From a virus, in IMG/VR virus record IMGVR_UViG_3300032893_000004, positions 91,058 through 155,057 of that record: 64,000 nucleotides of DNA, one strand, 5' to 3'. Positions 11,404 to 31,012 of the stretch are shown here, one piece after another; within the stretch, counting starts at the first letter, position 1, and every line of letters starts with the position of its first letter. Below the pieces are notes generated by a model, which did no database searches, had not been told where the DNA came from, and was given only the letters and a program-made list of their open reading frames with translations. The translations under genes and the position numbers were made by a program.

Positions 11404-12795
11404 TTAGAATAAATTGTCCACTATGACATTTTTTCTTGGCTGATAACCGGCAAGCGTCAGGAAGCGGAAGTGAGCTTCCGGGACGGACAAGTCCGCGATT
11501 GCGAGCTTCATGCGGCTGTACGGTGCCAGCTCGTGAAAGCCCCAAGTGTCCTTCTGGACAAGGTAACCGGTCACGAAGCCCGGCGATTTGTTGCCGAGGT
11601 CAGTGAAGGTCACGTTTGCGGATCCGTTTGCTGCGATACGACCGATGTAGTATGCAGTGGAGGCCGACGTCCCGCGATACACGTTGTAGAGCGAAGCTCC
11701 AGCAACGCCTGCGATAACTAGAGCAACTTGTTGGCCAGCTGCGACCGTAACGGGTGCCGAGAACATCTCGACGCCTTCACCGCGTTCATTCTCAGCCGTC
11801 ACGCCGTACACATAAGTGCCAGCGGGGATGAGCGCGCCAGAACCGGACGGCGTACCGACCGCAGTTGCGGGCGGGAGCGGCGAGCCGATCATTGCGCGAA
11901 GAGGCGAAGTTTTGCCGGACAAGAAGCGCGAGTCTTCGAGACCGACCGTTCCGTTGGAAACCCACTGTCTGCGGAGATCCGCGCCGGAAGCGTCTTGTGC
12001 GGAGCCAGCGAGCACGATCCGTTGGATCGAGTTCACGCCCGTACCGAGAGCGACCGAGGTGTTGTAACCGGACAAGATGACCGGGTCAACGAACATGGTT
12101 TCTGCTTTACCCATGTTCATGCGGCTGCGGAGAGCCGAACTTTCGATGATAGGCTGGTCGAGCGAACCGTTCTGCGAGAGAACGACCGACTTGTTCGATC
12201 CGTAAGATGCGAACATCAGATCCTGCGTCGAAACGAGGATGTCCGACATGCGAACTTGCGAATCGAGGCCGAGCATGCTCGGGAGTTCCGGCATCAGAGC
12301 CGGGTTACCGTCGAAGACGCCGTTGTTTGAGAAATCGGCCTTTCCTTTGAAAGAGTCGAATTCGATGTCCGCCGACAATTTGATTGCGGCGTTGTCCGCC
12401 TCACGGTCTTCGGCTTTCTTGCCGTCGATGGTCTCAACCATGTTAGCGGCGATTGTCACACGCTCAACACAGGAGTAGAAACACATCGGAACCGTAGCCC
12501 GGATATAGTCGCCGACGTTCAAGTCGCCGACCGCGCCTTCGCGCTGCGCCGTACCACCGAACCGTCCGTAAGACAGCTGACGGTTAAACTGCACAAGCAA
12601 TGACTTGGCTTTCTTCACCGAGAAGAGCTTCTGGAGCTTGATGTGACTGTCGTCAAACGTCACGTTGTGCATCACAGGCTCAAGGTTTTCGATCTGGAGA
12701 GCAGATCCTTGGACCAACTGCGACGGTGCTACGTTGTAGTTACCGGCCTCCAAGGTTTTCACGAGACTCTCAAGAGTCTTGACTAGATCGTCCAT
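11404..12795 (-). CDS. Major capsid protein (Herelleviridae/SPO1-like type, with FN3-like C-terminal insertion)
   Basis: 463 aa; GSALQIENLE, FNRQLSYG, IEFDSFKG, GTYVYGVTAENERGE, YNVYRG; follows the scaffold. Confidence 0.88.
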   Translation of the reverse strand: MDDLVKTLESLVKTLEAGNYNVAPSQLVQGSALQIENLEPVMHNVTFDDSHIKLQKLFSVKKAKSLLVQFNRQLSYGRFGGTAQREGAVGDLNVGDYIRATVPMCFYSCVERVTIAANMVETIDGKKAEDREADNAAIKLSADIEFDSFKGKADFSNNGVFDGNPALMPELPSMLGLDSQVRMSDILVSTQDLMFASYGSNKSVVLSQNGSLDQPIIESSALRSRMNMGKAETMFVDPVILSGYNTSVALGTGVNSIQRIVLAGSAQDASGADLRRQWVSNGTVGLEDSRFLSGKTSPLRAMIGSPLPPATAVGTPSGSGALIPAGTYVYGVTAENERGEGVEMFSAPVTVAAGQQVALVIAGVAGASLYNVYRGTSASTAYYIGRIAANGSANVTFTDLGNKSPGFVTGYLVQKDTWGFHELAPYSRMKLAIADLSVPEAHFRFLTLAGYQPRKNVIVDNLF

Positions 12796-12797
12796 TA

Positions 12798-13637
12798 TTA
12801 TTTCCCTCCCTTAGAGTGGATAATTTTTTCGACTTCTTCTGCCCCTTCACCGGAGATGTAGAGGCGGTTTACCATTTCACGTTCGCTCTTGGTCAGAGCG
12901 GCAGGCGAAAGCTTGCGAGCTTCTGCCTTAACTTGATCGATCGTCATCGGACGGCCGTTACCAGCTGCCGGATTGTCATTCTCGGTCTTGTTCATGACCT
13001 GAATTTCTGTGATCGACTTGCGAGCAGGCTTAGCGAGAGCTTCGAAGGCCTTCACGACCATCTGATTGGCTTCCTCAGCTTGCTGAACACGTTTTTCAAG
13101 AGCGGCGATCATCGCCTCCGACTTGCCCATATCTTGCGGCGGTGCTTGCGGCGCCGGAGCAGGAGGAGCGGCAGACTCGGGGGCGGCCGGTGCAGCCTGA
13201 CCTTGGTCTTGGCTGTAGGCAGCTTGGAGCTGTTGGCGGATGATCGAATAGTGTCGCTCAAGTTCGTCCGGCGGCATGGATCCGTAGATCTGGGCCAGCT
13301 CTTCATCGGACAACGGCTGGTCTTCGCCAGGTTGCCCTTCGGCCGCAAGTTGTTGCTCGTCGCCCGCCGGAGGCTGTTGGCCATCCATAGGGGGTTGGTC
13401 ACCTGCAGGCGGTTGATCGCCAGCCGGAGGAGCATCATCTGCGGGAGGAGCGTCGTCGGTAGGCGGCGCGTCAGAAGAAGCCGGTGCAGCGGATTTGTCC
13501 GGAGGAGCGTTTTTGTCGTCCTTCGGATCTGAATCTGCCGGATCTGCCTTAGCTAACAGCTCAGCCTTCGCCAGCGTTTCGTCAACGCTATCTAGGATGC
13601 TCTGTACGTCTTGGTCAGTCCATTTTGGCTTAGTCAT
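12798..13637 (-). CDS. Putative capsid scaffold protein
   Basis: Acidic Pro/Ala-rich low-complexity region plus coiled coil, directly upstream of the capsid gene. Confidence 0.7.
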   Translation of the reverse strand: MTKPKWTDQDVQSILDSVDETLAKAELLAKADPADSDPKDDKNAPPDKSAAPASSDAPPTDDAPPADDAPPAGDQPPAGDQPPMDGQQPPAGDEQQLAAEGQPGEDQPLSDEELAQIYGSMPPDELERHYSIIRQQLQAAYSQDQGQAAPAAPESAAPPAPAPQAPPQDMGKSEAMIAALEKRVQQAEEANQMVVKAFEALAKPARKSITEIQVMNKTENDNPAAGNGRPMTIDQVKAEARKLSPAALTKSEREMVNRLYISGEGAEEVEKIIHSKGGK

Positions 13638-13668
13638 TTTCCAATTCCCTTTCTTAGTTAGAGTCCTA

Positions 13669-14160
13669 TTATGAACTCTGGATAAGAGGATTGATCTCGT
13701 CAGACGGGATCGTGATCAGGGGCGTTGCAGCTGCGAAAGTCGTGTCGAACGCGGTGATCGATGCAGCCAAGATCGTAGCCTGCGTGGCTTGGCTGATGAA
13801 CATCTTGAGTCCCATCTTGCCGAGAGCTTGATGAATGCGAGCTTGCAAAGCGCGCGAATCCGTAGTCGTCTGATCGCTGTCTTGCAGCAATTCGATGACA
13901 TGCGGGCTATAAGCAGTTTGAGCGAGACCAAGGCCGTTTACGCGATATGCCGGACCGGGAACACCACCGATTAAAGGATCGGTTGCCGACTGAGCAGGAT
14001 CCTGCAGAACTTTCGTCTGAACTGCGGCTGTGTTGTAAGACACGTTGATCGCCGGATAGCCGTTGGCATCGAGTGCCTGCGTGATCGTAGCAGTAGGCAT
14101 CAGCAACTGTAGTCGCTGCGTCAGTTCTCTGACTTTTGCCTGGGCGGTGAAAGCTGACAT
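13669..14160 (-). CDS. Putative head decoration / minor virion protein
   Basis: Strong AGGAGGA SD; Ala/Thr-rich; first gene of the capsid operon. Confidence 0.5.
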   Translation of the reverse strand: MSAFTAQAKVRELTQRLQLLMPTATITQALDANGYPAINVSYNTAAVQTKVLQDPAQSATDPLIGGVPGPAYRVNGLGLAQTAYSPHVIELLQDSDQTTTDSRALQARIHQALGKMGLKMFISQATQATILAASITAFDTTFAAATPLITIPSDEINPLIQSS

Positions 14161-14716: not shown

Positions 14717-14726
14717 AAGATTAGGC
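14717..14726 (-). promoter_or_regulatory. Putative late promoter motif GCCTAATCTT
   Basis: Overlaps the TAA stop of the 2191-aa gene. Confidence 0.7.
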
Positions 14727-17700
14727 TCTGCGCTTCTTCGGCGCCTTCGGCTGCAGTTCCAGTACCCAGCACTTCGTGGAAAGCTTGTTCTTCTTGAGAT
14801 TGTTCAGCATCTCTTTGTTATGCTTGGGATAATCTGTATAATCGCACTGCTGGAATCCAAATTTTCTAGGATTCTCGTCGTAGATCTTCCTGAACCCAAC
14901 CGTAAAAGGCTTGGTATTCGGATTGTCCCAGTACTCGCGGTCATATTTCCCACCGTTCGACATGTATCCGCGCAGTTCGGCGCCGTGCATGTAGAGGTGG
15001 GTGATGCCTTGAGCACGTGCGTTTTCGATAACCGCAGACATGGATGCTTCCGTCCAGTCCGACAGGTGAGTGTCGATCTTCTTGGCGTATTGCTTCATGT
15101 CCTCGGCGGTGATGTTCTGCCCATTGATCTTAGTCCCGGCCGGGAATTGGCTCATAAGAGCCTTCAGGTTTCGCCGGAACTTCTGGGCGAAATCCGATTG
15201 ATATTCCTCGATCGCCCACGCGTTCTTGCCTTTGACAGATTGATCGGTGTCAACCCGCGACCAGGAAACCATATGGGGCGTAGTGGGATGCATACCGATG
15301 GACCCGTTCGAGATGCCGTTTGTCTTCTGAAGTAGATGCTGGTATAGAGACCAAAGTTTCGGATCCTGGGACAGCTCCTTCTCGGAAGCCTCTGAATTGT
15401 TGACCTGGACAACCAAGTTAGCTCTGCCAGGTGGATTGTGTCGCTGCAGCTTAGAAGACCATTCCGAATATGTCAGGTGATACTTCTTGGAATTATCGTC
15501 TAGAGCGCGCATAGCTTGCGCGAATTGTTCCGGCATCACCGGCTTATTCTGAGCTGAAGTGAACACGGCCTTCACTGATGGCGGGAGAGACTTCTCTTCG
15601 GCCGGAAACTTCCTCTTGAATTCGGCCCACGCCATACCTTCAGCAGGTATGAGAGCCATGGTCGCTTTCATGCGCTCGTAGTCCTTGTGCTGGAGGCTGA
15701 TATCGCGTAGAACCTTCGACTCGTCCACACTTCCGCTGGCGCCGGCCTTCTGAGATTCCGGCAGCGCCACAGGGATGGCTCGAAACAGCTTGCCGCCGTA
15801 CGTCGGATTGGTCAAAGCCGGGTTGAACTTTCCGCCTGGGGCAAAGAACTTCGGAAACTGCTCGTTGGAAAGAGCAAACAACTCGCCGAGATCTTGTTCC
15901 GACACGTTCGGATGTTGCATGAGTTGAGTAGCCATTTCCGACGCCGTCCTCTTATCGATGTCCTTGTAATTTTGAGCATCGTTCCGGAGAATCGCGTCGG
16001 TGTACATCTTGACAGCTTTTGGCGGAGTAGACTTGTTCGAAAGTATATCGATCGAAGCCTGAGCCATCGCTTCTTTGTTGCGATCGAACATATCGTAGAC
16101 TTGAGCTGCAAGATCTTCGTCGATGTGAGGAGATGACGTCACAGGCTTAAGCTTCATAGCCAAATTATGACCTTCCGAGGGGTGGATGTCGGTGTGCCCG
16201 GAGAACATGTAATCGTGATTTTCCTTGGCATACGCTCGTAAGCTCTCGACGCCGCCGACGCCGTTTTCGACGGCCGTCTGGAACAAAGAGTTCCTAAGAT
16301 CGTGGGCACCGGATTGCGCCAGAAGATCGGTTAGGTCCTTGTGAGACATGTCTGGACCCATATACTTGAGACCTTCTTCCATCGCGTACGTATAGTCGTT
16401 GTGGAATATCTCGTTGTTGTTCTTGAGCTTGACGTACATGTGCAGAAGATTCTTACCGTGGTGAGCGATATCCTCCTTGGACATCTTCGCAAACCAATCT
16501 TTAGACGATTTAACGAACGCGGTCTTCGCTCGGTTCTCATCTTTATTCGTCGATTTCTCGCCGAACTGCTGGTAGTTCGAACCGTTGAGCGCTTCCGTCG
16601 GAATATTCGTCCGATCACGTAGAGCAAAGATCGCATGCGGAGCGGACTTAAACATCTCGCGCCAATCCTGCTCTTCGAAATTTTCTGCGGCTCCTACGAT
16701 ACCTTTGATGGCTTCATGGGTCTTTTCGGGAGCCAATTCTTTTCCGGAAGCCTCCTCGATGGAGTGGTACTCTTTCACCATGTCCATGACCTTGAGAGCA
16801 TCCTCGCGGTCCAGTTGTATGCCAGTCTTGGCGATCTTAGTCAGAATCGACAGCATCGTGGCATGGTCGCGGGACGCTTCTAACTTACCAGTATTGTTCA
16901 GGTCCGGTGCTTGGAGTCGCATATGAGACGCAACCGTTTTTATGTGACCGTGGATCTGTCCGATCATTTCGGAAATTTTGCCTAGCTTGTCTTTCAGATT
17001 CGGCGTTTCTTCCTTGACGCTGGCATTGTGTATGGCTGTGGCGTACTGATCTAGATTGCTCAGGATCTTGTTACGGTGTTCCGCGCCCATAAATGGGGCA
17101 TTCGGCGCAGCCAGATTCGGATCTTTGACCAACGCGTCCATATCACGCATCTTAGCGTGAACCGCGTAGATCAAGTTCCCGTCCATAGCCTGTCCTATCT
17201 GACGGATCAGCGGATTGAATTTTTCGTCCGGCATCGAACGAGCGAGCTTGACGGAATCGTCCGGCTGCACGTACTGGTTATGCTCCATCTTGCTGAACAT
17301 TCTAGACTGATCGATCGAGTACGGGTTCTCTGCGTTCACAGCCAGAGACCGATTCACCAGAATCGAAGAGTTCGCGCCGGTCAAGCGATCTGCGTTCTCT
17401 GCGAGAGCTTGAAGCTTCCACTCCGACGCAGATGCTTCGACGAATCTAGGATCATTGAGCAAGTTATCCGGTATTCGGTCTTCAGATAGTTCCGCGCCGG
17501 CGGCTAATTGATTGGGATCGTTTGGCAACTGTTCCCAAAGACTGACCGCCTGATCGACGTTGCCGGCTTCGGCAGACTGCATAGCCATGTTCCTGAGTTG
17601 AGCATGCGCGAACGGAGCGATCTTAGGATCCAGAGTCTGCTTCTTGATGTAGTTCAAGACGAATTCGTTCTTTTGCTGTTCTTCCGGTCCAGATTCTGAA

Positions 17701-20700
17701 GGCGTAAACGTCGATGCGAGATTGTTCATGAACTTTTCTCGCACCAATCCGCGAGGATCGTTTATCCCTTCCTGGGAGATCTTGTTTTCGAACGTCTTCG
17801 CAATTTCCAGCACCGCAGCCGGTTCGGTATTGGAATTCAGCTGGGACGACACGCCGGCTATCTGACGAGCGTTGAGAGTATTCGGCTGAGCCGCAGCTCT
17901 GGCCAAAGCACTGATGCCTTCGCTCGACAAGATCCCGTGATCAGAAAGCTGGATCATAGTATCGTAGTCTTTTTGATCAATGGCGTTGCGTTCGATCTGC
18001 TTGCCCATGTTAGCCGGCGCCATATTGCGCGATTTTAGAGCTACGTACGCCGACAACATCGTTCCGTTCTTATCTTCCGGGATGGCGTAGGATGCGGATG
18101 CCAAATGTTCAAGGACACTTTTTGCGATGCGCTTTCTGTCGTCCTGCGTCAGATCATCGCCTTGCGCTGGAGCCGAGAGCGCTTGCGCCAACATAGTCGA
18201 CAACTCGCCCGGACTCTTCGTACGATACAAGTCGATCAGGTTGTTCAATCGAGAATTATAGATACCCAGCGTTTCGTCTCTCATCGATGAGCGACGTCCG
18301 TGCTCGTGCGCCTCCGGGTTCAGCATAGACGAGTTGATCTTTGCGGCCAGATGCTCCAGATCTTCCGGTGTGTGATTTCCGCCGGAGACCCACGAATCGA
18401 GAGTTCTTTGACGCAGCTTAGGATTGCCTATCGCCAAGATGTCTCTGACGGAGTTAGCTTGAGTCATCTGCTGCAGTTTTTCTGGCGAGAGCAGATTATC
18501 GGCCAGAGCTTGGTGCTTTACAAGTTCGCCGTCTTTACCTGGCATATCAGCTAGAAAATCTAGGTTTGCACCAGCCGCCTTCAAAGATGATAGGAACCGA
18601 TCGTCGTGATACCCCTGCTTCTGACGAGTCATCAACGAATACCACTTCTCAGCGATCGGATTGTCTGTCTCTGAATCGCTGAAAGACGGCATCGACGCGA
18701 CCCGTCCGTGTAAATAATTGACGAGGTCTTCCGCCTTCTGGCGGCCGATGGCCTTTTTGTCCTCCGACTCGTAGCTGGAGACATGCACCCCACGACTCAG
18801 TTGATTCATCTTCCGCGCGAGCAGATTGTAGGCAAGCGGTGCCTTGCCTGAAGCGGCCGCGTGATCGATCAGCGCATCGTCTCCTGGCTTGGTGTACATC
18901 TCATCGGGGATATTATTTAGCAACCCTTCGTCGGACATGTGCCCAGGTTGGCCTTCCGGTACTGAAATAAGCTGATCCAATACAGATCTGTCATTCGGCG
19001 ATTCAGGATCCAAGTGGCTTACAGCCTTCGCCTGATAATTCTGGAAACTGCCGCCGATCCTATCGTTATCTCCCGGATCGTTGTACATGCCAAGCACGGC
19101 GTTGTGGAATATGTCCGGTCTGTGGTTCTTAACATGTTCGACTTCATCTTTGATTAGTCGCTGCTTGTTATCAGTCGACAACATGTTGAAAGCGCGGTCC
19201 CACGACGCCTGAGGAGCGTTAGCGCGAACAACTGATATGGCCGCCTTCTGCGAACCGCTGTTCAAGATCGGTTCGTATTTTTTGTTCTGCTCATCCTCCG
19301 GAAGGGAATCGTAGCGCTTAAAATAATCTCCCGCTCCGATCTTATCCATAAGTTCGCCGTTCCGGGCAATCTCATGGAACAGATATTCCGGCATATTGTT
19401 AGATTCAAACAGCTTTCGTGCCATGTGAGCGGAATCATCGAACAGCTCTGGGCGACCGCCATGGTCGTATACTTGCGTGTTGTTTGCGATATATTCCTGA
19501 CGTTTTCGGAACATGTCGGCCAAGAAATCTGGATCGGCATCGTTCAGATTTATGTTGGACTGAACCTCGGAAAGATATCCTGGATTTTTGAGAATAGCAG
19601 CTTGGGCGTTTTTGTCGCCGTTCACCGCCAGATGCGAGATGGCCGTTACGATCCTGGAGTTGTTGTCCCGCTGGTTCCTGCCCATCACGTCGTTAGAATG
19701 CGATACGACCATCTGGTTCTTCGGAACTTTGTCGTCGAAGATGTTAGCGAGATCTTTAGAATTAGCCTCGCGGATGGCAGACGGTACGCGCTGATCGAGC
19801 GCCAAGTTGAACTTACTGCTTATGACGTTCTCCGGACGCTCCTTGGTCTTCTTGGAGATCTCATCTATGTTATCGCCCTGATACTTCTCGTGAGCCTTCG
19901 CGAAGATGGCTTCCTGATCCATCTTGGGCAACTTATCGAACTGCTGCTGAAACTTCGGATCATGGTACACGTTCGAGAGACTGGTCGCACCGGACTTTAG
20001 TCCTTCCTTCACCTGCTGTTCAGCCACCAACGGATGCAGCCGTGCGGCGTCTTGAACAGTCTTTGCCCGACGTTTCAAACCTTCGTCAACCACATCCATG
20101 TCTGCGTTCGGATGATTCAGAGCCTTGACGGCGACTTCCTGGTTCTTGTGGTTTACGATCTCTTTCAGCACGTCGGGCGGTACGGACTGGGCTTGAAGAA
20201 TATCGCGTGCAGAATCTAGGTCCTTCGAGCCTTTTTGCCAGTAATCGCGGACGTCCGCTTCGTCTGCCATAGGATGCTTGATCGCTTTGTTGAAACCTTT
20301 TTGGATCAGAGCCTTAACCTGCGGCTTCGTCAGCGATGGGTTCTGAAGAAGACTGTCGACCTTGTTACGGGTCTCCCAGTCGCCTGAATCTTTGAACCGC
20401 TTTATCATACCGTTGATGGACTCTTGCGGCAGACGCGGATTCTCGATGGCACTATCGCGGGAATTCTTGCCTACCGCGTACTTTGCCAGCAGCGCCGGGT
20501 CGACGTTCTTGTGGCTTAGCAGGGCATCTAAACGCTGGTTGGCGTAATAGTCATGTCTATCGCCGGACTTGTTAGCTTCGTACCACTGGTGAATCTTGTT
20601 TAACTGATCCTTCGATAGATCTTCGCGTCCTTCCACCAGATCGTTGAGAGCTTCGTGCGGATCATGCTTCGAAGCCGCAAACGCGTCGATAGTCCGATCG

Positions 20701-21296
20701 AGAGTTTCCGGAGTGTGCCGCGAACTGTTGATCAGACCTTTCTTGGCAAAATCTAACTCTCGGGAATGCTGCTTCTGGCCATTCTCATCCAGTTCGTTCG
20801 GATCTTGCTGAGACCGACCTTTGAAGAATTTCATATAGTAGTTCGGGCCAAGATGCTTGTAGGCATGAGGTACATCGCCGGAAGCTAGAACTTTCTCCGC
20901 CATTCCTTTCAGCTGATTCTCGTCCAAGATACCAGAATCGGCCATTTCTGCGTGCAAATCCGACGAAGGATTCTCCGGATTGAAAGTCTTCAAGACAAAG
21001 TCTTGCTTCAACTCTTTAGGAGTATTCGGATGCTTGAGGATATTCTCCATCAAGTCGTTGCGCGGTTCGGCGTCGCCGGTAGCAGCCGAGGTCGAGTCAG
21101 GAGTTACCGGCGCCATCGTGTGATGATAAAGCTTATCGATCGAATGAGCTGACAGATTGGGATGAGAAGTCACTTCCTTCATCAGGTCGATGTTGTCAGC
21201 CTGCTCGTGTTCGGGCAGCTGGATATGATGTTCCACGTGGGCGTGCAAGGTATCTGCCGGCGTGTCGGGCGCTAAGTGTTTGATCTCGTCGCTCAT
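14721..21296 (-). CDS. 2191-aa protein with HPN/NP-type helical repeats and a C-terminal EEYQSD domain; likely internal virion protein
   Basis: Repeats ILKHPNTP, LLSHKNVD, AIENPRLP, LLQNPSLT, ALNHPNAD; lies between protease and scaffold. Confidence 0.6.
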   Translation of the reverse strand: MSDEIKHLAPDTPADTLHAHVEHHIQLPEHEQADNIDLMKEVTSHPNLSAHSIDKLYHHTMAPVTPDSTSAATGDAEPRNDLMENILKHPNTPKELKQDFVLKTFNPENPSSDLHAEMADSGILDENQLKGMAEKVLASGDVPHAYKHLGPNYYMKFFKGRSQQDPNELDENGQKQHSRELDFAKKGLINSSRHTPETLDRTIDAFAASKHDPHEALNDLVEGREDLSKDQLNKIHQWYEANKSGDRHDYYANQRLDALLSHKNVDPALLAKYAVGKNSRDSAIENPRLPQESINGMIKRFKDSGDWETRNKVDSLLQNPSLTKPQVKALIQKGFNKAIKHPMADEADVRDYWQKGSKDLDSARDILQAQSVPPDVLKEIVNHKNQEVAVKALNHPNADMDVVDEGLKRRAKTVQDAARLHPLVAEQQVKEGLKSGATSLSNVYHDPKFQQQFDKLPKMDQEAIFAKAHEKYQGDNIDEISKKTKERPENVISSKFNLALDQRVPSAIREANSKDLANIFDDKVPKNQMVVSHSNDVMGRNQRDNNSRIVTAISHLAVNGDKNAQAAILKNPGYLSEVQSNINLNDADPDFLADMFRKRQEYIANNTQVYDHGGRPELFDDSAHMARKLFESNNMPEYLFHEIARNGELMDKIGAGDYFKRYDSLPEDEQNKKYEPILNSGSQKAAISVVRANAPQASWDRAFNMLSTDNKQRLIKDEVEHVKNHRPDIFHNAVLGMYNDPGDNDRIGGSFQNYQAKAVSHLDPESPNDRSVLDQLISVPEGQPGHMSDEGLLNNIPDEMYTKPGDDALIDHAAASGKAPLAYNLLARKMNQLSRGVHVSSYESEDKKAIGRQKAEDLVNYLHGRVASMPSFSDSETDNPIAEKWYSLMTRQKQGYHDDRFLSSLKAAGANLDFLADMPGKDGELVKHQALADNLLSPEKLQQMTQANSVRDILAIGNPKLRQRTLDSWVSGGNHTPEDLEHLAAKINSSMLNPEAHEHGRRSSMRDETLGIYNSRLNNLIDLYRTKSPGELSTMLAQALSAPAQGDDLTQDDRKRIAKSVLEHLASASYAIPEDKNGTMLSAYVALKSRNMAPANMGKQIERNAIDQKDYDTMIQLSDHGILSSEGISALARAAAQPNTLNARQIAGVSSQLNSNTEPAAVLEIAKTFENKISQEGINDPRGLVREKFMNNLASTFTPSESGPEEQQKNEFVLNYIKKQTLDPKIAPFAHAQLRNMAMQSAEAGNVDQAVSLWEQLPNDPNQLAAGAELSEDRIPDNLLNDPRFVEASASEWKLQALAENADRLTGANSSILVNRSLAVNAENPYSIDQSRMFSKMEHNQYVQPDDSVKLARSMPDEKFNPLIRQIGQAMDGNLIYAVHAKMRDMDALVKDPNLAAPNAPFMGAEHRNKILSNLDQYATAIHNASVKEETPNLKDKLGKISEMIGQIHGHIKTVASHMRLQAPDLNNTGKLEASRDHATMLSILTKIAKTGIQLDREDALKVMDMVKEYHSIEEASGKELAPEKTHEAIKGIVGAAENFEEQDWREMFKSAPHAIFALRDRTNIPTEALNGSNYQQFGEKSTNKDENRAKTAFVKSSKDWFAKMSKEDIAHHGKNLLHMYVKLKNNNEIFHNDYTYAMEEGLKYMGPDMSHKDLTDLLAQSGAHDLRNSLFQTAVENGVGGVESLRAYAKENHDYMFSGHTDIHPSEGHNLAMKLKPVTSSPHIDEDLAAQVYDMFDRNKEAMAQASIDILSNKSTPPKAVKMYTDAILRNDAQNYKDIDKRTASEMATQLMQHPNVSEQDLGELFALSNEQFPKFFAPGGKFNPALTNPTYGGKLFRAIPVALPESQKAGASGSVDESKVLRDISLQHKDYERMKATMALIPAEGMAWAEFKRKFPAEEKSLPPSVKAVFTSAQNKPVMPEQFAQAMRALDDNSKKYHLTYSEWSSKLQRHNPPGRANLVVQVNNSEASEKELSQDPKLWSLYQHLLQKTNGISNGSIGMHPTTPHMVSWSRVDTDQSVKGKNAWAIEEYQSDFAQKFRRNLKALMSQFPAGTKINGQNITAEDMKQYAKKIDTHLSDWTEASMSAVIENARAQGITHLYMHGAELRGYMSNGGKYDREYWDNPNTKPFTVGFRKIYDENPRKFGFQQCDYTDYPKHNKEMLNNLKKNKLSTKCWVLELQPKAPKKRRA

Positions 21297-21892
21297 TTTT
21301 CACCGTACTTTAGCCAACGCATCAGCTCTTTTGTCCAGTCTTGATCTTCCGCACCGGAGAGGTTAGCTTCGTCGATGGCCGGATCATATTCTCTGGAAGC
21401 CATTTCCCGATCGTCGTCGTGCTTCTGCTGATCTTTTTCAACCATACCGAGAACTGTATCGTTGATCTTAGCCTTGGGCGAATGGAAGTCCGGCGGCGGA
21501 TTGGCCGGCACAACCGGTAGGGCCTGCTGAACGTCTGTTTTGCGAGCTACTTTGATCTCGCCGCGAGTGAAAGCATTGAACAGCGCGTCCTTCTCTTCCT
21601 GCGGCAACAGGTGACCGTTGAGGATGACCGTGTGGCCGTCCGAGGTGATCTCTACCACGTCGCCGTTGTCCATGACGTACCGTAAAAGATTGACGGTGGC
21701 CTTGGTCGGCTCCGACATAGTCAGGTGCGACGAATTTCCGACAACCTGCTGCATCTTCGGATAACTGTTCTGGAACAACTTAGGCAATTGGCCGTTTGTA
21801 TTGTCTACGACAAAGTCGAGCGCATCTCCGTCCGTGCGGATCTCCGCGAGCGGTATTTCGGAATAATCTGATTTGATGACTACGACTTTCAT
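21293..21892 (-). CDS. Hypothetical head-module protein
   Basis: ATGA-coupled on both sides. Confidence 0.7.
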   Translation of the reverse strand: MKVVVIKSDYSEIPLAEIRTDGDALDFVVDNTNGQLPKLFQNSYPKMQQVVGNSSHLTMSEPTKATVNLLRYVMDNGDVVEITSDGHTVILNGHLLPQEEKDALFNAFTRGEIKVARKTDVQQALPVVPANPPPDFHSPKAKINDTVLGMVEKDQQKHDDDREMASREYDPAIDEANLSGAEDQDWTKELMRWLKYGEK

Positions 21893-23589
21893 GCTACTCT
21901 CTTCGCTCTTTCTTCGGCGTTAACCTTGGTCATATGATTCGCTGCGTGATCAAACATCTGTCCTATGCTCATGTCAGAACGATCGGCGAGTTTTTGATAA
22001 TATTTCAATCCAGAAACCGCCGTTTTTATTGTAGCAGGATCGTGACCTTGATCCAACATCTTTCCGGCAAGAGTTTTAGCGTCTATGCCCTTGAGCCACT
22101 TCGCAGCTTCCGGATGAAGCTTATCGTTCCCTTTTTCGGCAGAAATAAGGTCAGGTTCCGTAAAACCACCGTTCCAACCGAGAAAAGCATCGTCGTGATC
22201 TATGCTCATCAGATGACCTTTAGGATGAACCAACAAATTGCCGTTATGCCGGTCACCTACACCAAGAATATGATTCGCGATAATCAACTTGTGAATGTGG
22301 CCATCCTTCTCGTGTTTCCGAAAAGCGTTGGCTAGAACATCTCCGCTTTGCAAAGGAGTCTTTGCTTCTTTTATGTATTCCATGGCTGATATGGCATTGC
22401 CGCCGTGGACGTTCGGATGTGCTACTTTTGTGACAATCGGCACATACTTTCCGAGTCCAAAAACGTCTTTCATGATCTGAAAGTGATTGTGCGCATTCGT
22501 GTATTCTTTGTCCGCCATACGATTTCCGACTGGACCTTCCGGCCTATGCTTAACCAAGACGTCCCGTCCTTGATCGTTACGAAGATGCAGGATTTTCTTT
22601 TTCCGACTGGAATGCACAGACTCGGAAGCTGGATCGTAGTAAAGTCCCTCTACCAGCGACTTCTGGTCATCGTCGGACGACGGATGGGCGTGCTTAGCTC
22701 CGATGCGCACCAGCTTTGGAGACGGCATGTTCTTCTTGAGCGCCAGCTCTTCCGCCAGCTTCTCGAAGTGGCCGATGTAGTCGTCTGACACCTCTGGTAG
22801 AGCGCCTTTCAGCACTTCCTTGAGAGGACGCTTGCGGTCCCAGTCGCGAACAGCGGCCTTCACGCGATTTCTCTGGAATCCGCTGATATGCTCGCGGGTA
22901 AGTGCGGCTTGACCGGTCAGCTGGGACGGAGCTACGTTGCCCATACCAGCCTCTATGCTCTTCGTGAGACTCTCGACGGCCTTGTGCAGATCCAGTATCG
23001 GATCCTTGGGGATGAACATATCATCGAGGATAATTGAATCGATTTCGATTAAATGATCGACTCGATCCGACACATCTGAAATATATTTAGCTATTGAGAT
23101 CGATTTTGGATCTTCAAGTAATCCGGCTATGGCTGCCTTATTGCACGCGCGTAAGGTGCATGCCACGCGCCTTCCGACAGTTTCTTTTAAGATGTAGTCA
23201 TCCCGCTCAAGCGTCGCACCCTCAATACTGAAGTTTGTAAGTAGCCGTTCGCCCTGTTTTGCATAATAACGTATCATTGCGGCGACTGCGACTGCGCCAG
23301 GATGATTTACATCATCGTCATCGAACAATTCTGAAATAATATAAACAAACGGCTTTTTTACTATGTTCCAATAATATCTTTGACGATCATTTTCACAATC
23401 TTCTTTTTTAAGAATTTTTCTTGCATAGATAATTGCCCCGATGATATCGTCGGATTTATTCGAATGCTCCCAATTTAATACCCCTCGGCCTTCGACGAGA
23501 TCTGATATGTCGTGGTTGGCAACAACGAGTAACTCACCTGAGCTGTCGATTGTTTCAACTGTTGCACATCCGTCCAGTTTGAGGCCCAT
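21889..23589 (-). CDS. Prohead protease fused to a C-terminal PI3/PI4-kinase/HipA-like domain
   Basis: N-terminal GCATVETIDSSGE..LNWEH..FSIEG..VACT; C-terminal VLVKH..GDRHNGNLLV..SIDHDDAF; ATG 23589 with GGAGGT SD. Confidence 0.78.
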   Translation of the reverse strand: MGLKLDGCATVETIDSSGELLVVANHDISDLVEGRGVLNWEHSNKSDDIIGAIIYARKILKKEDCENDRQRYYWNIVKKPFVYIISELFDDDDVNHPGAVAVAAMIRYYAKQGERLLTNFSIEGATLERDDYILKETVGRRVACTLRACNKAAIAGLLEDPKSISIAKYISDVSDRVDHLIEIDSIILDDMFIPKDPILDLHKAVESLTKSIEAGMGNVAPSQLTGQAALTREHISGFQRNRVKAAVRDWDRKRPLKEVLKGALPEVSDDYIGHFEKLAEELALKKNMPSPKLVRIGAKHAHPSSDDDQKSLVEGLYYDPASESVHSSRKKKILHLRNDQGRDVLVKHRPEGPVGNRMADKEYTNAHNHFQIMKDVFGLGKYVPIVTKVAHPNVHGGNAISAMEYIKEAKTPLQSGDVLANAFRKHEKDGHIHKLIIANHILGVGDRHNGNLLVHPKGHLMSIDHDDAFLGWNGGFTEPDLISAEKGNDKLHPEAAKWLKGIDAKTLAGKMLDQGHDPATIKTAVSGLKYYQKLADRSDMSIGQMFDHAANHMTKVNAEERAKRVA

Positions 23590-24338
23590 TATGCGTACCT
23601 CCAAATGTATCCTCTATGCGTTTTTGTGACTCCGCAACAAACACCGCGTACCTTCGATGCGCAACATCCAATAGATTCAGTATCTTTAGGGCAGTCCCAT
23701 ACCTTTACTGTCAATCCCGTCAGCGGATCGATCTGCAAAACTTTTTTGGCTCTTTTTAATTGAAGTTCTCGCTTGAAAATTGGGTCCAGACGCAATTTAT
23801 TTAGTCTCGCTTCATTCGCTGCGCTAAGAGCTTCGCTGCGATCATGGGTCGACCAGTATTTTTCGGCTCCGGCCATGCGATTTTGTTTGCCGGAATCAGA
23901 CATTTTCCGCAATTGTTCTTTTCCAGCATCTGTGGCTGCCCACAGTTTACGTTCTTCTGACTTTTTCGTACGTCGGTCTTTGTCCCAGCTCGCGATTGCG
24001 CTGGCAGAAAGTGTCTTTTTCAATTCTGATGTGTATATGCATCCTTCTTTCCCGCCATGTTTAATGTTGTATCCCGAGGGACGAAGTGAGCCAAAACATA
24101 CTATAAAATGTCTCTCCATGCGATCCAAGGAAGTCTGATCTATATATGTAATCAACTCTTCCTTTTCAAAAGATTCGCGCCCATATTTTTTTATGGCATT
24201 CTTGATTGGCCTAGAAGTATTTTTGGTCGCACAACAATGGTCTGCCCAACGCTCGGCCATTGAGCGAGTAGTCTGGCCGATATAGATCTTACCGTTCACA
24301 TTGTTCGTGATTTTGTAAATGATTCCGTATCGTTGCAT
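23589..24338 (-). CDS. Free-standing GIY-YIG homing endonuclease with NUMOD1-like C-terminus
   Basis: GIIYKITN..KIYIGQT..R, GYNI, KTHRGYIWRY; AT-rich. Confidence 0.9.
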   Translation of the reverse strand: MQRYGIIYKITNNVNGKIYIGQTTRSMAERWADHCCATKNTSRPIKNAIKKYGRESFEKEELITYIDQTSLDRMERHFIVCFGSLRPSGYNIKHGGKEGCIYTSELKKTLSASAIASWDKDRRTKKSEERKLWAATDAGKEQLRKMSDSGKQNRMAGAEKYWSTHDRSEALSAANEARLNKLRLDPIFKRELQLKRAKKVLQIDPLTGLTVKVWDCPKDTESIGCCASKVRGVCCGVTKTHRGYIWRYA

Positions 24339-24344
24339 TCTCGT

Positions 24345-24354
24345 AAGATTAGGC
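24345..24354 (-). promoter_or_regulatory. Putative late promoter motif GCCTAATCTT
   Basis: Between the stop of the gpF-like gene and ATG 24338 (6-nt gap). Confidence 0.7.
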
Positions 24355-25239
24355 TCATCCGTGATTACATCCTGGTCCGTGTTCATGCTCTCTCTCGTGT
24401 TCAATATTCATAGCTAAATACTCATCGTAACTCACGAATTCGCTCTTAACAAGAGGAACTGCATCTGGCACTTCTTCGGCTTTCTTCAGCTTCCAGTAGT
24501 CCTTGTGGTAGTCATACCCAAATTCGACGAACTCGATCACGCCAGCATCGTTGAAGCCGAAGTTCGGCGGGACAAAGCTCATCACGTGTCGGCAGCGCGG
24601 GTGAAGCGGCGACTGATGCGGAGTCTTTCCGTCCCATTCTTTGGGCTTGAAGTATCCCTCCTGGATCTGTGACAACTTGTACGGCTTCGGCTTCCGTATC
24701 GCAGCGGAGTCGTGGTACATCGCCTTGCAGTATTTACAAATCTTGTGGTCGCAGACTCCTAGAAAAACGACGGTCGGATCTTTGACACCGATGTCAGACG
24801 CAAGCTTGCCGATACCCTCGCGCGAGGCATATGTCTGCACGATGCGCGCTTCGTTCGAGACGAGCAGATCGACGTACTGACCTGCCTTCTCGAAGTGCCC
24901 GCGAATAGATCGAATCGCTTCAGATGGGGTCTTCGCTTTAGCCACGTCTGCCAGAATGTGGTTCTTGATCTTGAGCTGCTGTGAATCCATGTAATTACTC
25001 GTAATATCAGCCAAATTTTCGATATTCTTCTGATCAGGCTTAGAATGGGCTCCGTACATGGTCTTCAGAGTGAAGTTGTACAGGCCTTCGATCGTATGGA
25101 GCGGATCAGCTCGGCGAACGACTTCGAAGTACAGCTTCGGCCCTTTGAACATCTTGCCTAGCAGCTTAGCCTTCGTTCCTTCGAACAGAGACTCGATCCG
25201 CTGGATTATGATGTTCCTCTGGGCGTCGGTGAGCTTCAT
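24355..25239 (-). CDS. Mu gpF / SPP1 gp7-like minor head protein
   Basis: DHKICKYC and PLHPRCRH; follows the portal. Confidence 0.75.
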   Translation of the reverse strand: MKLTDAQRNIIIQRIESLFEGTKAKLLGKMFKGPKLYFEVVRRADPLHTIEGLYNFTLKTMYGAHSKPDQKNIENLADITSNYMDSQQLKIKNHILADVAKAKTPSEAIRSIRGHFEKAGQYVDLLVSNEARIVQTYASREGIGKLASDIGVKDPTVVFLGVCDHKICKYCKAMYHDSAAIRKPKPYKLSQIQEGYFKPKEWDGKTPHQSPLHPRCRHVMSFVPPNFGFNDAGVIEFVEFGYDYHKDYWKLKKAEEVPDAVPLVKSEFVSYDEYLAMNIEHEREHEHGPGCNHG

Positions 25240-27440
25240 CAGCTCCCCTTCTTTTTACCGTCTTTGAGGATCCTCGCCATGGCGGCGACCTCTTTCGCAG
25301 ATTCGCGCTTGAAGTGGGCCATCGTGGAGTCTACCAGCTGCTTGTGCTGGCGCATCAGGCGACGCGAGATTCTATCGTGGTTATTCTGGATGGTCTTTTC
25401 GAGCAGCATGTAGCTATTCGTCGACCACGCCATATTCTTGGCCGAGATATCCTTCACGATGTCGATCGCTTTTTCGGCTTTAGAAGTCTGCTCAGGCGGC
25501 ATGCTGCCGCCTCCGGAGTCGCTGCTGTCATCGTCCGACCCGGAATCCTTGTTGTCCGAGCCAGAATCTTTGTTATCACCTTCGTCGTCCTGGATAGGGT
25601 TTCCCTGCGCGTCAGCCGTGATACCTTGCTCGGCCAGTGCCTGCTGCTGCATCATCTGCTGAGCTTGCATCTGCTGCTGCATCGCTATCTGAGCTTGCTG
25701 GAGGATCATCTGCTTGTTCTGGAACCAGAACGGATCGCGGATGTACTGGTAGCGAGGATCAGACGCAGCGCCTTTCACTTTGAAGAAGTTTTCGAGGATC
25801 TGACCAACAGTCAGGTACTTGTCCATGACTGCCTGGAACTGCGGGTTAAGCGGAAAGTCGCCGCCCATCTCGACCGGAACCGGGTTCTTCTCGACCTGTT
25901 CCATGATCTCGTTGTAGTTCATGTGAACGGCCATGTCCTGCTGCAGACGGGTGTTCTCTTTTTCCGGAGAATCCTTATCCAAACCAGTCAGAACGATCTG
26001 ATGCGTCTTAGCCAGTTCCGGATCCACGAATGGGAGGATATGGGTATTCAAAAAGTCTTGGATATCGGATAAGAGCGGACGGAGGCCCACATCGCGGGCA
26101 GCCGTAAGCTTCCACTCGTTGTCCGATTCTGAAAGTGCCTGAGTATTCGTGCCCCGAGCAAGGTGAGCGTAGCCAGGCAATTCTTCCGGCGACATCTGGA
26201 AGGCCGAGAGGATCACCCGAGCGTTGTTGTCCATCAGGTACTGGAATTCTGCGTCGCGGCCGGAGTTATCGATCGCTTCCCAGTTCAGCTTATCCTCGGA
26301 TCCGATCGCGAAGACGGGCATGCGCCACGAGTTTTGAACGGAGTTGATCGACTGATGGAATTGGAGGCGAATACGCTGTGCTGCTGCTTCGTCCATGGAG
26401 TCGGACTGGAACACGAGCATGCCCTTCGAAGCGCGGCCGTGCTGGAAGTACAGCTTGTTATGGACAGTGATGTTGATGTGGGTCGTGATCGCGTTGAGCG
26501 CCTGATCGATCGGAGTAAGAGGGTAGCCGTTATACTCGATGCCTGTCGTCGGATAAAGATTGTAGACGACCATCTCTTCTTCGGTGAATGTCTGAACCGG
26601 CTTTCCTTCGATGACCTGAACGTAGCGGTACTCGTCCTTCTTGTACTTCTCGATGTCGATCTTCTTGTTCTTGATCTGCTGCAACTGACGAATAGCTTCT
26701 TGGCGAAGCGACTGGTCGTGTTCTTTCTGCGGCAAGATTTTCAACATCGTGCCGGCGTCGGAAGCGCGCCATGCGTATAGTTCTCGTTTGCCTGTTTCCG
26801 GATTCGTCCACCAGCTACGTTCGCAGGCGAGACGACCGAAGGCAAGTCCATCGCGGGTCACCAGCTTCAGGAATTGAGACAAGTTGACTTGATCAAGCTC
26901 GCCGTCAAGAGTGCCGCGACCGCACTGCCAGAACTTCTTCTTGGCTGCGTCGATTCTCTCTTGAATCTTGCGCTGATCTTCTTCAGAACGCTTGGCGTTC
27001 TTGTCCATGTCTTGAAATTCGAAGCCTACACTGAAGCGGTCCGTCCTAGGACGACCGAAGGATGATATATGGTTCGAACGAGCTTGAAGAATCTCGTTGA
27101 CCAACTCGTCGCCGCCCGGCCCGCAGATACGCTTGATGATATGATCAGGCGTTAGATTCTGTTTTAGCCGGTAAAATCCGAGAGCACCGGAATAGTTAGC
27201 ATGCGGGTCAACCTGGAACGACATTCGTTCGAGTTGAGCTGCCTGCATAGCGTTCTGAGCTTTGATAGACTTAACAATCTCACCGAGAACACCGGTATCA
27301 GCTGTAGTCACTTCCTCTTTTTCGTTGGAAAGTTCCCGCGCCGCCGCGTCAGCTTTAAGAAGCTTCAGAGCGTTCGGATCCAGAGCGACTATCTCTTGCC
27401 GTGGGCGATAACGCTTCTTTTTTTCTTCTTCGTTTGCCAT
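25239..27440 (-). CDS. Portal protein
   Basis: 733 aa; GYPLTPID, YFQHG..KGML, WRMPV, DAEFQ, AFQMSPEE; between terminase and head genes. Confidence 0.88.
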   Translation of the reverse strand: MANEEEKKKRYRPRQEIVALDPNALKLLKADAAARELSNEKEEVTTADTGVLGEIVKSIKAQNAMQAAQLERMSFQVDPHANYSGALGFYRLKQNLTPDHIIKRICGPGGDELVNEILQARSNHISSFGRPRTDRFSVGFEFQDMDKNAKRSEEDQRKIQERIDAAKKKFWQCGRGTLDGELDQVNLSQFLKLVTRDGLAFGRLACERSWWTNPETGKRELYAWRASDAGTMLKILPQKEHDQSLRQEAIRQLQQIKNKKIDIEKYKKDEYRYVQVIEGKPVQTFTEEEMVVYNLYPTTGIEYNGYPLTPIDQALNAITTHINITVHNKLYFQHGRASKGMLVFQSDSMDEAAAQRIRLQFHQSINSVQNSWRMPVFAIGSEDKLNWEAIDNSGRDAEFQYLMDNNARVILSAFQMSPEELPGYAHLARGTNTQALSESDNEWKLTAARDVGLRPLLSDIQDFLNTHILPFVDPELAKTHQIVLTGLDKDSPEKENTRLQQDMAVHMNYNEIMEQVEKNPVPVEMGGDFPLNPQFQAVMDKYLTVGQILENFFKVKGAASDPRYQYIRDPFWFQNKQMILQQAQIAMQQQMQAQQMMQQQALAEQGITADAQGNPIQDDEGDNKDSGSDNKDSGSDDDSSDSGGGSMPPEQTSKAEKAIDIVKDISAKNMAWSTNSYMLLEKTIQNNHDRISRRLMRQHKQLVDSTMAHFKRESAKEVAAMARILKDGKKKGS

Positions 27441-29104: not shown

Positions 29105-31012
29105 TTAGTCATCGCTACCCTCTTCGGTTCCAAAATCCCATATAACGTTCCCGTCAGCCGACCTACCTTTCAGACCAGCGCTGGTGTCGCCGCCTTCTAG
29201 TGCCTGCCTCTTCTGGGTCTGCCAGTCCTGAAAATGTTTCTCTGGAGTCGGAGTCTGAACGAAGAACTGCTCGAACGGGTTAGGCGGCCCCTTCGGAGGA
29301 GGAGTGTTGACTTTCGACACTTTGTACAGGTTCTGAGCTTGGTATCTGACCGAATCCGCTATATCAGCGAATTCACCGTCGTCCGGATCCTTCGTCAAGT
29401 TACCGAGTGTATCGAGTTTGAAGCAGTGCTCCGCGAACATCTTAATGAACAGTTCGGTCCTGTCGTGCTTGATGACCTTCAAGAATCGGCGGTTACGGGC
29501 ATTGATGATTCGCCCGCGAACGGCCGAGATGCCGCCGAATACGTCCTTAGTGAACTTCTTGCACGGCATCCGCGAGTTCTTGAATTCTTTGATGAACATC
29601 GGCTCCGACGTGTCCGCGAACCACTGCACGATTCGGTACATATCGCGGACTTCTATCGCGAGCGCCATCATCTGAGCAAATTCCAGCCCAGGCACGGAAT
29701 AAGCGTCGACGAGCCACCATTCACCGTTTGGCATCTTGGCAGAAACAGAGATCGCGAAAGCGTGCGTAGTTCCCCAATCCACGCCCGCGTAGAACCGAAT
29801 ACCTTTACTTAGCATGAACTGGATCAGATCCGGGAAAGTAAGACCTTTCGGGGCCGCGTCGCCGGTGTACACTTCCCACGCTTGTTTCACGCTGTACGTA
29901 TTACCGGAGCCGTCAGCGGCGTCCACGAAGCGCGGGTACACCATGCCGGCCGAAGACGGCTTCCAGCACATCAGCTGGGCTTCGGCTAGATCTGGGTCCT
30001 TATCGAACTGCGAGATCGTAAAGTCTATAGGCTTCCATAGGCCGCCCTTGTCTTTTTCGGAGCGGTGCGCCAGGCGAGTGCGGCAGACTGGAAGAAGCGG
30101 ACACTTGAGGCATCCTTCGTACGCCTCTGTACGATCGTACCCTTCCTTCTCCTTCTCGATCAGGTTGGCATATTCCACTTCCGTGATCGTACGAAGCGGC
30201 AAGTTCTTGGCAACGTACACGAAGGTTTTTGGTTTTTCAGGCATGTGTCGCTTCGGCTCGCACTTCTCGGTGATGTCGATGATATTCCATCGAAAGACTC
30301 GGTACCCGTTCTTCTGCGCCTTCTCCATCTCGCGCGTAAACAAGCCGCCGGGGAACTTGAGGGTCGACGTCTTGATCGTAACGGGATGCTGACCGTTGAA
30401 TACTCCTGGGATGTATTCCGCTTCTTTGTACGCTCGAAGCTGCTCCTTAGAGCGTATCGTATCGATCTCGTCGATTGTGAAGATGTTGGTGTGAGCTGAG
30501 TTCGCGCCGGTGACGGTGCAAACGATGATCTTCATATAAGCATCTTTTTCTTCAGGCGTGCCAGGGTTGATCTTGAGACTGATCTCTTTGGAGTTCGAAG
30601 AGTCCAGTTCGATCTTGTGATACTCAAGATATGGTCTGATCTTGTCGATGAACATGGAAATATAATTCTGGGCCGCCGTAGCTTGCGGAACGATCGCTGC
30701 CATGTGGGCTATGGAAGCCCCGAATTGAACCATCATGATGATCGCGAATGCCGCCTCCGAAAGTGTCTTGTACGACTCCCGAGACGAGATCACGATCGTG
30801 CTGGGCGACTTGTGACCTTCGTTTGCCTCGTACATCTTGTACGTGTCGTAGAGCCAGTGAACTGGGCTGGAGTTTGAATCGGGATCGACCCAAGAATCCG
30901 GGAAATCCAGATCGAGGAAATTATGAATCCACGTCTTGGCATGTTTTGGGCTCGTGAACCGCTTTAAGAAAGTCTGAGCTAAGTGTGGATCTACCTGAGA
31001 CTTAGAGTTCAT
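29105..31012 (-). CDS. terL: Terminase large subunit
   Basis: SSRESYKT (Walker A-like), IDEID (Walker B), GVDWG nuclease motif, DIADSVRY. Confidence 0.88.
   Translation of the reverse strand: MNSKSQVDPHLAQTFLKRFTSPKHAKTWIHNFLDLDFPDSWVDPDSNSSPVHWLYDTYKMYEANEGHKSPSTIVISSRESYKTLSEAAFAIIMMVQFGASIAHMAAIVPQATAAQNYISMFIDKIRPYLEYHKIELDSSNSKEISLKINPGTPEEKDAYMKIIVCTVTGANSAHTNIFTIDEIDTIRSKEQLRAYKEAEYIPGVFNGQHPVTIKTSTLKFPGGLFTREMEKAQKNGYRVFRWNIIDITEKCEPKRHMPEKPKTFVYVAKNLPLRTITEVEYANLIEKEKEGYDRTEAYEGCLKCPLLPVCRTRLAHRSEKDKGGLWKPIDFTISQFDKDPDLAEAQLMCWKPSSAGMVYPRFVDAADGSGNTYSVKQAWEVYTGDAAPKGLTFPDLIQFMLSKGIRFYAGVDWGTTHAFAISVSAKMPNGEWWLVDAYSVPGLEFAQMMALAIEVRDMYRIVQWFADTSEPMFIKEFKNSRMPCKKFTKDVFGGISAVRGRIINARNRRFLKVIKHDRTELFIKMFAEHCFKLDTLGNLTKDPDDGEFADIADSVRYQAQNLYKVSKVNTPPPKGPPNPFEQFFVQTPTPEKHFQDWQTQKRQALEGGDTSAGLKGRSADGNVIWDFGTEEGSDD

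Follow-up and report, generated by a model that had tools for sequence, protein, structure and literature searches.

A two-domain reading frame in a phage head module

The open reading frame (ORF) described here lies on the minus strand of the window, a 64,000-nucleotide stretch covering positions 91,058 to 155,057 of the IMG/VR virus record IMGVR_UViG_3300032893_000004, and it appears to join a prohead protease to a kinase through a linker. The source record represents an uncultured virus, has a length of 155,057 bp and is estimated to be 96% complete. The ORF opens with an ATG at position 23589, ends with a stop codon at 21889-21891 and codes for 566 amino acids (Table 1). Its start methionine is the same in aligned homologues, and the plus-strand translation of positions 21889-23589 is riddled with stops. 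An earlier note on this DNA had proposed a protease-kinase fusion in a single ORF at these positions on the basis of six short motifs. Its coordinates are right, the strand is minus, and all six motifs were placed by translation: IDSSGE at residues 13-18, LNWEH at 38-42 and FSIEG at 120-124, followed by VLVKH at 344-348, DRHNGN at 446-451 and IDH at 463-465. These motifs are retained in approximately 90 full-length homologues that share 35-69% identity. The Pfam score, the independent fold matches and the conservation of the motifs in homologues put this two-half ORF well beyond chance.

On the minus strand, the gene order is large terminase, a 542-residue ORF, portal, a 294-residue ORF, a homing endonuclease, the protease-kinase ORF, a 199-residue ORF, a 2191-residue ORF, two small ORFs, a 279-residue probable scaffold protein, and the major capsid protein. 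The portal is thus on one side and the scaffold and capsid genes are on the other, which is the usual position of a prohead protease and agrees with the placement given in the earlier note. The same arrangement occurs in Myxococcus phage Mx1 and in the related locus L019. Mx1 is the cultured relative closest by capsid protein (53% identity), followed by SPO1-type Bacillus phages (approximately 25%). The ORF overlaps both of its neighbours, by 1 nucleotide upstream and by 2 nucleotides downstream, where the start codon of the 199-residue ORF (21892-21890) lies over the stop codon (21891-21889).

Table 1. Genes, domains and residues discussed in the text, with positions in the window (aa, amino acids; pLDDT, predicted local distance difference test; PI4K, phosphatidylinositol 4-kinase)
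Feature	Positions	Strand	Remarks
Large terminase gene	29105-31012	-	
Portal gene	25239-27440	-	
GIY-YIG homing endonuclease ORF	23589-24404	-	271 aa; PF01541, phrog_314; between the 294-aa head gene and the protease gene
Whole protease-linker-kinase ORF	21889..23589	-	566 aa + stop
Predicted prohead serine protease domain (assemblin / T4 gp21 fold), aa 1-165	23095..23589	-	AlphaFold2 model and fold matches
His42, candidate catalytic residue	23464-23466	-	
Ser121, candidate catalytic residue	23227-23229	-	
Low-confidence tether, aa 166-194	23008..23094	-	poorly conserved; pLDDT <50 for aa 177-194
Capsid N-terminus copy, aa 198-235	22885..22998	-	putative self-cleavage and/or procapsid-docking signal
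Three-helix module, aa 236-290 (RDWDRKRPLKE ... LKK)	22720..22884	-	conserved; also in kinase-less relatives
Type II PI4K-like kinase domain, aa 291-566	21892..22719	-	Pfam PF00454, Foldseek, VIA
Lys347, ATP-binding	22549-22551	-	
Catalytic loop, D446-R-H-N-G-N451	22237-22254	-	
Metal-binding IDH 463-465, with Asp464	22195-22203	-	
199-aa ORF	21293..21892	-	start overlaps the kinase stop codon; absent from minimal relatives
2191-aa ORF	14721..21296	-	start overlaps the stop of the 199-aa ORF; between protease and scaffold/capsid genes
Major capsid protein gene	11404-12795	-	phrog_752
First 40 aa of major capsid protein	12676..12795	-	original of the linker motif
ClpP-family protease ORF	2629-3312	-	227 aa; PF00574 at 115 bits

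Predicted fold of the N-terminal half

A Foldseek search with a model of the whole 566-residue protein returned kinases only, and the N-terminal domain was therefore modelled apart. The AlphaFold2 model of residues 1-178 (pLDDT 90.8) matches T4 gp21 (5jbl_A) in a VIA structural search with a Z score of 11.0 and a root-mean-square deviation (rmsd) of 2.2 Å over 118 residues, and varicella-zoster assemblin (1vzv) with a Z score of 10.0, while the next unrelated fold scores 5.2 or less. Foldseek likewise ranks herpesvirus assemblins first, with a probability of up to 0.99, and nearly all of the top 30 matches are assemblins. Judged by this model, the N-terminal half is a protease of the assemblin / T4 gp21 fold, which bears out the protease-like N-terminus described in the earlier note. 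No alignment made shows any variation at His42 or Ser121 (60/60 and 47/47 sequences), which form a candidate catalytic pair, with the histidine preceding the serine in the order expected of assemblin-type proteases. A third residue, His96, is nearly invariant and possibly also catalytic.

At the level of sequence profiles, the domain stands apart. Residues 1-200 have no match in Pfam, even at an E value of 10, and the protease half has none in PHROGs, NCBIfam or a profile search of the PDB. Peptidase_S77 and S78 have no match genome-wide, although the S77 control search was also empty in every genome. The protease half is related to the S77/S78 families at the fold level and is not a member of those sequence families. 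To define its own family, residues 1-200 were used in a HMMER search of 1.84 billion representative proteins (E <0.001), which yielded 768 protein clusters with the protease domain. In every match listed the domain starts between residues 1 and 107, at the N-terminus or close to it, and the proteins range in length from 147 to 1764 residues.

The same genome carries an ORF for a ClpP-family protease, located beside DUF932 and DNA ligase genes. It is established that ClpP/S49-type enzymes serve some phages as prohead proteases. Since the assemblin-like domain lacks a match to curated protease hidden Markov models, it could be argued that the ClpP-like enzyme is the real head-maturation protease, and that the assemblin-fold domain, active or not, is a module for self-processing or cargo loading. 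However, the ClpP gene lies approximately 8 kb beyond the capsid gene and outside the head module, whereas the assemblin-fold gene occupies the usual place in the portal-protease-scaffold-capsid series. In addition, the His/Ser pair of this domain is invariant across relatives from the 768-cluster family, and even minimal relatives retain the domain. We consider it very improbable that the assemblin-fold domain has ceded head maturation to the ClpP-like enzyme.

A type II PI4K-like kinase in the C-terminal half

The C-terminal half matches the Pfam family PF00454 (PI3_PI4_kinase) above the cutoff of 27.1 bits, both within the whole protein (42.8 bits) and on its own (44.5 bits), in an alignment that covers the catalytic-loop region only. 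In the full-length AlphaFold2 model (pLDDT 85.9), residues 299-562 give VIA matches to PI4KII alpha/beta with Z scores of 17.9 (9hhm_A), 17.8 (4wtv_A) and 17.4 (4pla), with 230-247 residues aligned at an rmsd of 3.5 Å. CtkA of H. pylori forms a second tier (Z 12.7), and LepB, type III PI4K, phosphatidylinositol 3-kinase (PI3K), ATM, mTOR and actin-fragmin kinase follow at approximately Z 11. Foldseek assigns the domain to PI3K/PI4K with a probability of 1.00. The ATP-binding lysine, the catalytic loop and the metal-binding IDH motif are all present (Table 1), so the intact kinase motif set claimed in the earlier note holds. That note had placed the domain in a clade of PI3/PI4-kinases, HipA and CtkA. 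The PI3/PI4 part of the assignment stands. However, the distance in Z score between the PI4KII structures and all others makes the type II PI4K-like enzymes the closest known class rather than HipA; CtkA is only second tier, and the HipA Pfam models have no match on the 566-residue protein. One distant relative does match HipA_2 (E 9.5e-6), and the ESM Atlas gives HipA_2 clusters as feature neighbours.

The kinase has in common with PI4KII alpha/beta, CtkA, LepB and RisK1 the lysine, the DRHxxN loop, and an ID[NH] motif instead of DFG. Its sequence identity to PI4KII is 12-15%, and the membrane-anchoring inserts of the eukaryotic enzymes are missing. With a score of 19 bits, where the cutoff is 800, it falls outside NCBIfam T4SS_Risk1. 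Bacterial secretion systems inject LepB and RisK1 as effectors, and CtkA and actin-fragmin kinase, which have the same fold, are protein kinases. Phosphatidylinositol is absent from most bacteria. Across the family, K347, D446, N451 and D464 are all intact in 137 of the 178 kinase domains. The remaining 41 (approximately 23%) have at least one of these catalytic residues substituted and yet keep the domain, which suggests an additional or alternative non-catalytic role.

A tblastn search of cultured phages found Mx1 as the sole match, and a search for kinase-only homologues gave 13 matches, all from the same family. Structural neighbours in the ESM Atlas hint at similar kinase domains on Phage_Mu_F head proteins (template modelling score 0.65), a tentative lead that the kinase-only search is too insensitive to confirm.

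A copy of the capsid protein N-terminus in the linker

Between the two halves, a poorly conserved tether leads into a segment that resembles the beginning of the major capsid protein, and this in turn is followed by a conserved three-helix module. The capsid-like motif and the three-helix module together (residues 195-290) are referred to as module B. Residues 200-235 of the linker align without gaps to residues 3-38 of the capsid protein with 56% identity over 36 residues (pairwise E 3e-7). Among the ORFs in all six frames of the window, a 37-position profile of the motif matched the capsid protein (E 4e-23), the 566-residue protein (E 1e-18) and nothing else; in related loci that hold both proteins, again only the capsid protein and the protease match in each. 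The core L-x-K-[T/S/A]-[L/I]-x-A-G-x-x-N-x-A-P-S-x-L hardly varies among 60 homologues. In the three-helix module, the model places helices at residues 237-248, 256-263 and 269-286, and K261, Y271, F275 and K286 are invariant.

The two copies also tend to change together. In locus L018, the linker and the capsid protein share an odd insertion of one residue (TYAGTAP), both copies in Mx1 read KAMEAGNFNA, and L025 and L035 show parallel deviations in both. Across 18 genomes, the linker is 56.7% identical to the capsid N-terminus of its own genome and 50.8% identical to those of other genomes, a difference that none of 10,000 permutations reaches, although the effect is small and its significance is inflated by genome relatedness. 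From these sequence comparisons, the linker tends to track the capsid protein of its own genome.

The motif is a plausible site of self-cleavage and docking. The model is disordered around residues 177-194 and 214-232, as an exposed processing site should be. Within the 566 residues, the pattern [LIMVF]-x-K-[STA] is confined to two places, positions 201 and 208, both in the linker, and the second occurrence is kept in 59 of 60 homologues; the count is only suggestive because approximately 2.4 occurrences are expected by chance over the whole protein. A cut at Leu-x-Lys is hypothetical, since the literature searched gave no cleavage-specificity data for head proteases of the SPO1/Twort type. 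A nested internal start that yields free kinase, comparable to herpesvirus UL26.5 or lambda Nu3, was ruled out because the alignment contains no conserved internal methionine.

The tether position itself is a site of insertion in relatives, which hold inserts of 100-390 residues there (local BLAST). In some relatives, a DUF5661 domain (PF18905) is inserted between the protease domain and module B, and one relative has DUF6321 and one an intein splicing domain (P0090, P0091, P0098, P0105 and P0117).

Domain architectures in the protease family

A census of 130 representatives with local profiles shows that the kinase is the commonest C-terminal partner of this protease. Module B followed by a C-terminal kinase, often after a spacer of approximately 600 residues, is found in 81 of the 130. 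A C-terminal GGDEF cyclase is present in 12 (11 with module B detected and one without), never alongside a kinase. Another 31 have module B alone or with unknown domains, and in the last six none of module B, kinase or GGDEF was detected. The earlier note had suggested a survey for swapped C-terminal cargo domains. Such a swap does exist, in that GGDEF replaces the kinase, but the kinase predominates and is not one among many interchangeable cargoes.

Of 13 proteins with the GGDEF domain, the 12 representatives plus P0103, 9 have the exact motif. The domain is fused to the protease in loci L024, L032 and L035. Elsewhere it is encoded by a separate ORF, which lies just downstream of the protease-kinase gene in L021 (13305-14432), L036 (14681-15928), L025 (15040-15849), L028 (12355-13389) and L001, which is Mx1 (13064-13855). 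A GGDEF profile search of the window found no match.

The kinase as an accessory and hypervariable cassette

A complete relative with terminal repeats (G001/L019, 144 kb) shows that the protease can do without its partner. Its capsid protein is 72% identical to the one in the window, and its protease has only 300 residues, consisting of the protease domain and module B, with the scaffold and capsid genes within 2 kb. A single-sequence search detected no kinase anywhere in this genome, and its head module has neither the 199-residue gene nor the giant gene. Heads in this clade can therefore be assembled without the kinase, and the whole block at 14721-22719 (the kinase and the 199- and 2191-residue ORFs) is accessory. 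The minimal head module of L019 (9995-14194) comprises the 300-residue protease, ORFs of 76, 140 and 315 residues, and the capsid gene.

Comparison with a close relative, L002, shows how quickly the kinase changes. Identity to L002 is 99% for the capsid protein, 98% for module B and 80% for the protease domain, and it falls to 37-46% for the kinase. At the DNA level, identity is approximately 75% throughout, except at the homing endonuclease, absent from L002, and across the kinase segment (22721-21904). With a kinase this divergent beside a nearly identical capsid protein, the domain behaves as a hypervariable cassette. The nearest relatives of the kinase (P0004 and P0003) differ from those of module B (P0016 and P0009), which indicates that the cassette is exchanged by recombination. 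What lies behind module B, the C-terminal module of the protease, is an accessory, fast-diversifying kinase of the PI4KII fold.

These patterns bear on the possibility that the kinase-fold domain serves head assembly, either as a core or spacer of the procapsid or as an ATP-dependent regulator that phosphorylates scaffold, capsid or protease, in which case delivery to a host would be incidental or absent. Such a role would fit the retention of the domain with a degenerate active site in nearly a quarter of the family and its tie to a morphogenetic protease in most of the representatives, and herpesvirus proteases fused to scaffold provide a textbook analogy. However, the relative with the 72%-identical capsid protein builds heads with no detectable kinase, and the kinase is only approximately 40% identical where the capsid protein and module B are 98-99% identical, the reverse of the pattern that a partner of conserved head proteins should show. 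The same position can also be taken by an unrelated enzyme, GGDEF. An assembly role is accordingly improbable in our estimation.

Two features of the surrounding genes are of separate note. The homing endonuclease seems to be a mobile element that entered the head module recently, given that L002 is without it. Downstream of the kinase, the overlapping start and stop codons of the 199- and 2191-residue ORFs suggest translational coupling; neither ORF has a significant family match, and neither shows similarity to the downstream hypothetical protein or the cyclase of Mx1.

A possible route from procapsid to host

We propose a model, along the lines of the one inferred in the earlier note, in which the fusion is packaged and cut, and the kinase is carried in the head and delivered to the next host. 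The whole fusion would enter the procapsid, as prohead proteases do, possibly docked through module B. Once activated, the protease would cut the N-terminus of the capsid protein and, judging from the shared motif, would also cut itself at the corresponding linker site close to Lys210. This cut would release a piece of approximately 40 kDa containing module B and the kinase, which would be expected to stay in the head with the DNA because it has no further copy of the motif and would be too large to leave the shell. The kinase could then be ejected into, or exposed to, the next host and, ahead of any phage gene expression, may phosphorylate a host protein, a lipid or a small molecule there. 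A host-directed role draws its strongest indirect support from the way the kinase has evolved and from the occurrence of another signalling enzyme, GGDEF, at the same position.

Several points weigh against this model. Packaging, cleavage, ejection and host phosphorylation are all steps that we infer. The protease half is invisible to the profile databases, and the ClpP-family enzyme could in principle share in head maturation. The linker copy might be a docking signal that is never cut, and its co-variation with the capsid protein is modest. The absence of the short lysine motif from the kinase is statistically unremarkable at the expected frequency, and a sizeable minority of the kinases have lost catalytic residues. 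Besides the inferred nature of the steps, this minority and the ClpP-family enzyme weigh most. Taking both sides together, we judge the full cargo-and-delivery model to stand in even balance between right and wrong.

The kinase might instead act late in the cytoplasm of the producing cell, on host metabolism, defence or lysis timing, with the fusion ensuring late co-expression or keeping the kinase inactive until the protease releases it. An accessory, fast-evolving kinase fits any host-directed role, this one included. In addition, the separate GGDEF gene beside the fusion in Mx1 and four loci carries no capsid-like motif, and thus an obvious loading signal is not common to all enzymes of the cluster. 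As known from HK97, T4 and herpesviruses, a prohead protease normally becomes active only on assembly. An enzyme fused behind the C-terminal module of the protease would ride into the procapsid unless it were cut off first, and a cut site that copies the maturation region of the capsid protein suggests that processing takes place within the shell. Nor is there an evident need for such enzymes to be fused to head proteins in hundreds of lineages if they act in the cytoplasm. For these reasons we regard a late cytoplasmic role as unlikely, and we favour carriage of the kinase within the virion.

Relationship to known systems

The closest textbook parallels are T4 gp21 and herpesvirus assemblin (pUL26), which share with the ORF the predicted fold, the His-before-Ser order and the position in a head module. 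In both the ORF and pUL26, a longer polypeptide begins with the protease, and a site resembling the protease's own substrate comes after it. The difference lies in the C-terminal passenger, which is scaffold in pUL26 and the lambda/P2-type proteases and an enzyme here, either a kinase or a GGDEF cyclase.

Mx1 provides the nearest example from a cultured phage. Its 1239-residue protein WNM70322, annotated as a 'putative prohead protease', is homologous in the protease and module B (41% identity over residues 3-287) and has a homologous C-terminal kinase-like domain at residues 957-1182 (E 9e-11). Unlike the ORF in the window, it has a spacer of approximately 650 residues between module B and the kinase, and its catalytic loop reads DRN rather than DRH. 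Mx1 also has a separate gene for a GGDEF 'nucleotide cyclase' two genes downstream, whereas the window lacks GGDEF. The Mx1 genome announcement does not mention the protease, the kinase or the cyclase.

Enzymes known to be injected with phage DNA include T4 Alt, the N4 RNA polymerase and MuF toxins, and the internal cargo of T4 is trimmed by the prohead protease. We propose a likeness to MuF toxins and to T4 Alt and the internal proteins, in which a head-internal carrier or signal brings a variable C-terminal enzyme into the capsid. MuF systems and T4 internal proteins use MuF or a short N-terminal targeting peptide for this purpose, whereas the carrier here would be the protease itself. PF04233 (Phage_Mu_F) has no match on the 566-residue protein, and the paper on MuF polymorphic toxins (Jamet et al. 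2017, PMC5576092) lists no kinase.

Polyvalent proteins (Iyer et al. 2017, PMC5512222) are a second relevant class. They are multi-enzyme polypeptides predicted to be packaged, processed and injected, and GGDEF and kinase domains are listed among them. Like the protease and kinase described here, they combine unrelated enzymatic domains in one polypeptide among virion genes. However, their assemblin-like peptidase is always C-terminal, whereas the protease in our family is N-terminal or nearly so in every match listed, and their kinases are eukaryotic-protein-kinase-like and lack the C-lobe, whereas the kinase here is PI4K-like.

Full-text literature searches aimed at a fusion of prohead protease and PI4K found no description of one, and the earlier note likewise knew of none. 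The literature searched also gave no head-delivered kinase or cyclase and no maturation protease that acts as a carrier. Prohead proteases can trigger type I cyclic-oligonucleotide-based anti-phage signalling systems (CBASS), as cited in PMC13728456; a tie between CBASS and the protease-kinase fusion would be speculative. Overall, the fusion is best seen as a widespread variation on the known theme of virion-packaged effector enzymes.

Implications

The model is open to direct testing, since Mx1 is a cultured phage for which plaque assays on a laboratory strain of M. xanthus have been published (PMC11506125). A broader and more tentative reading, which we hold to be possible but short of probable, is that phages of a large and mostly uncultured clade, with genomes of 140-170 kb, use the prohead protease as a general dock through which signalling enzymes are loaded. 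A self-cleavage module that mimics the capsid protein would let recombination attach PI4K-like kinases or GGDEF cyclases to the protease, and virions would carry tens of enzyme copies making phospho-marks or second messengers that reprogram or disarm the next host before phage transcription begins. If the cargo-and-delivery model is true, the order of protease, capsid-like cut site and cargo would be a simple, modular recipe by which capsids take up foreign enzymes. It could also explain why kinase and GGDEF genes are embedded in Mx1-like head modules, and it would reveal that bacterial targets, perhaps including defence systems, face a large and fast-evolving family of PI4K-like kinases.

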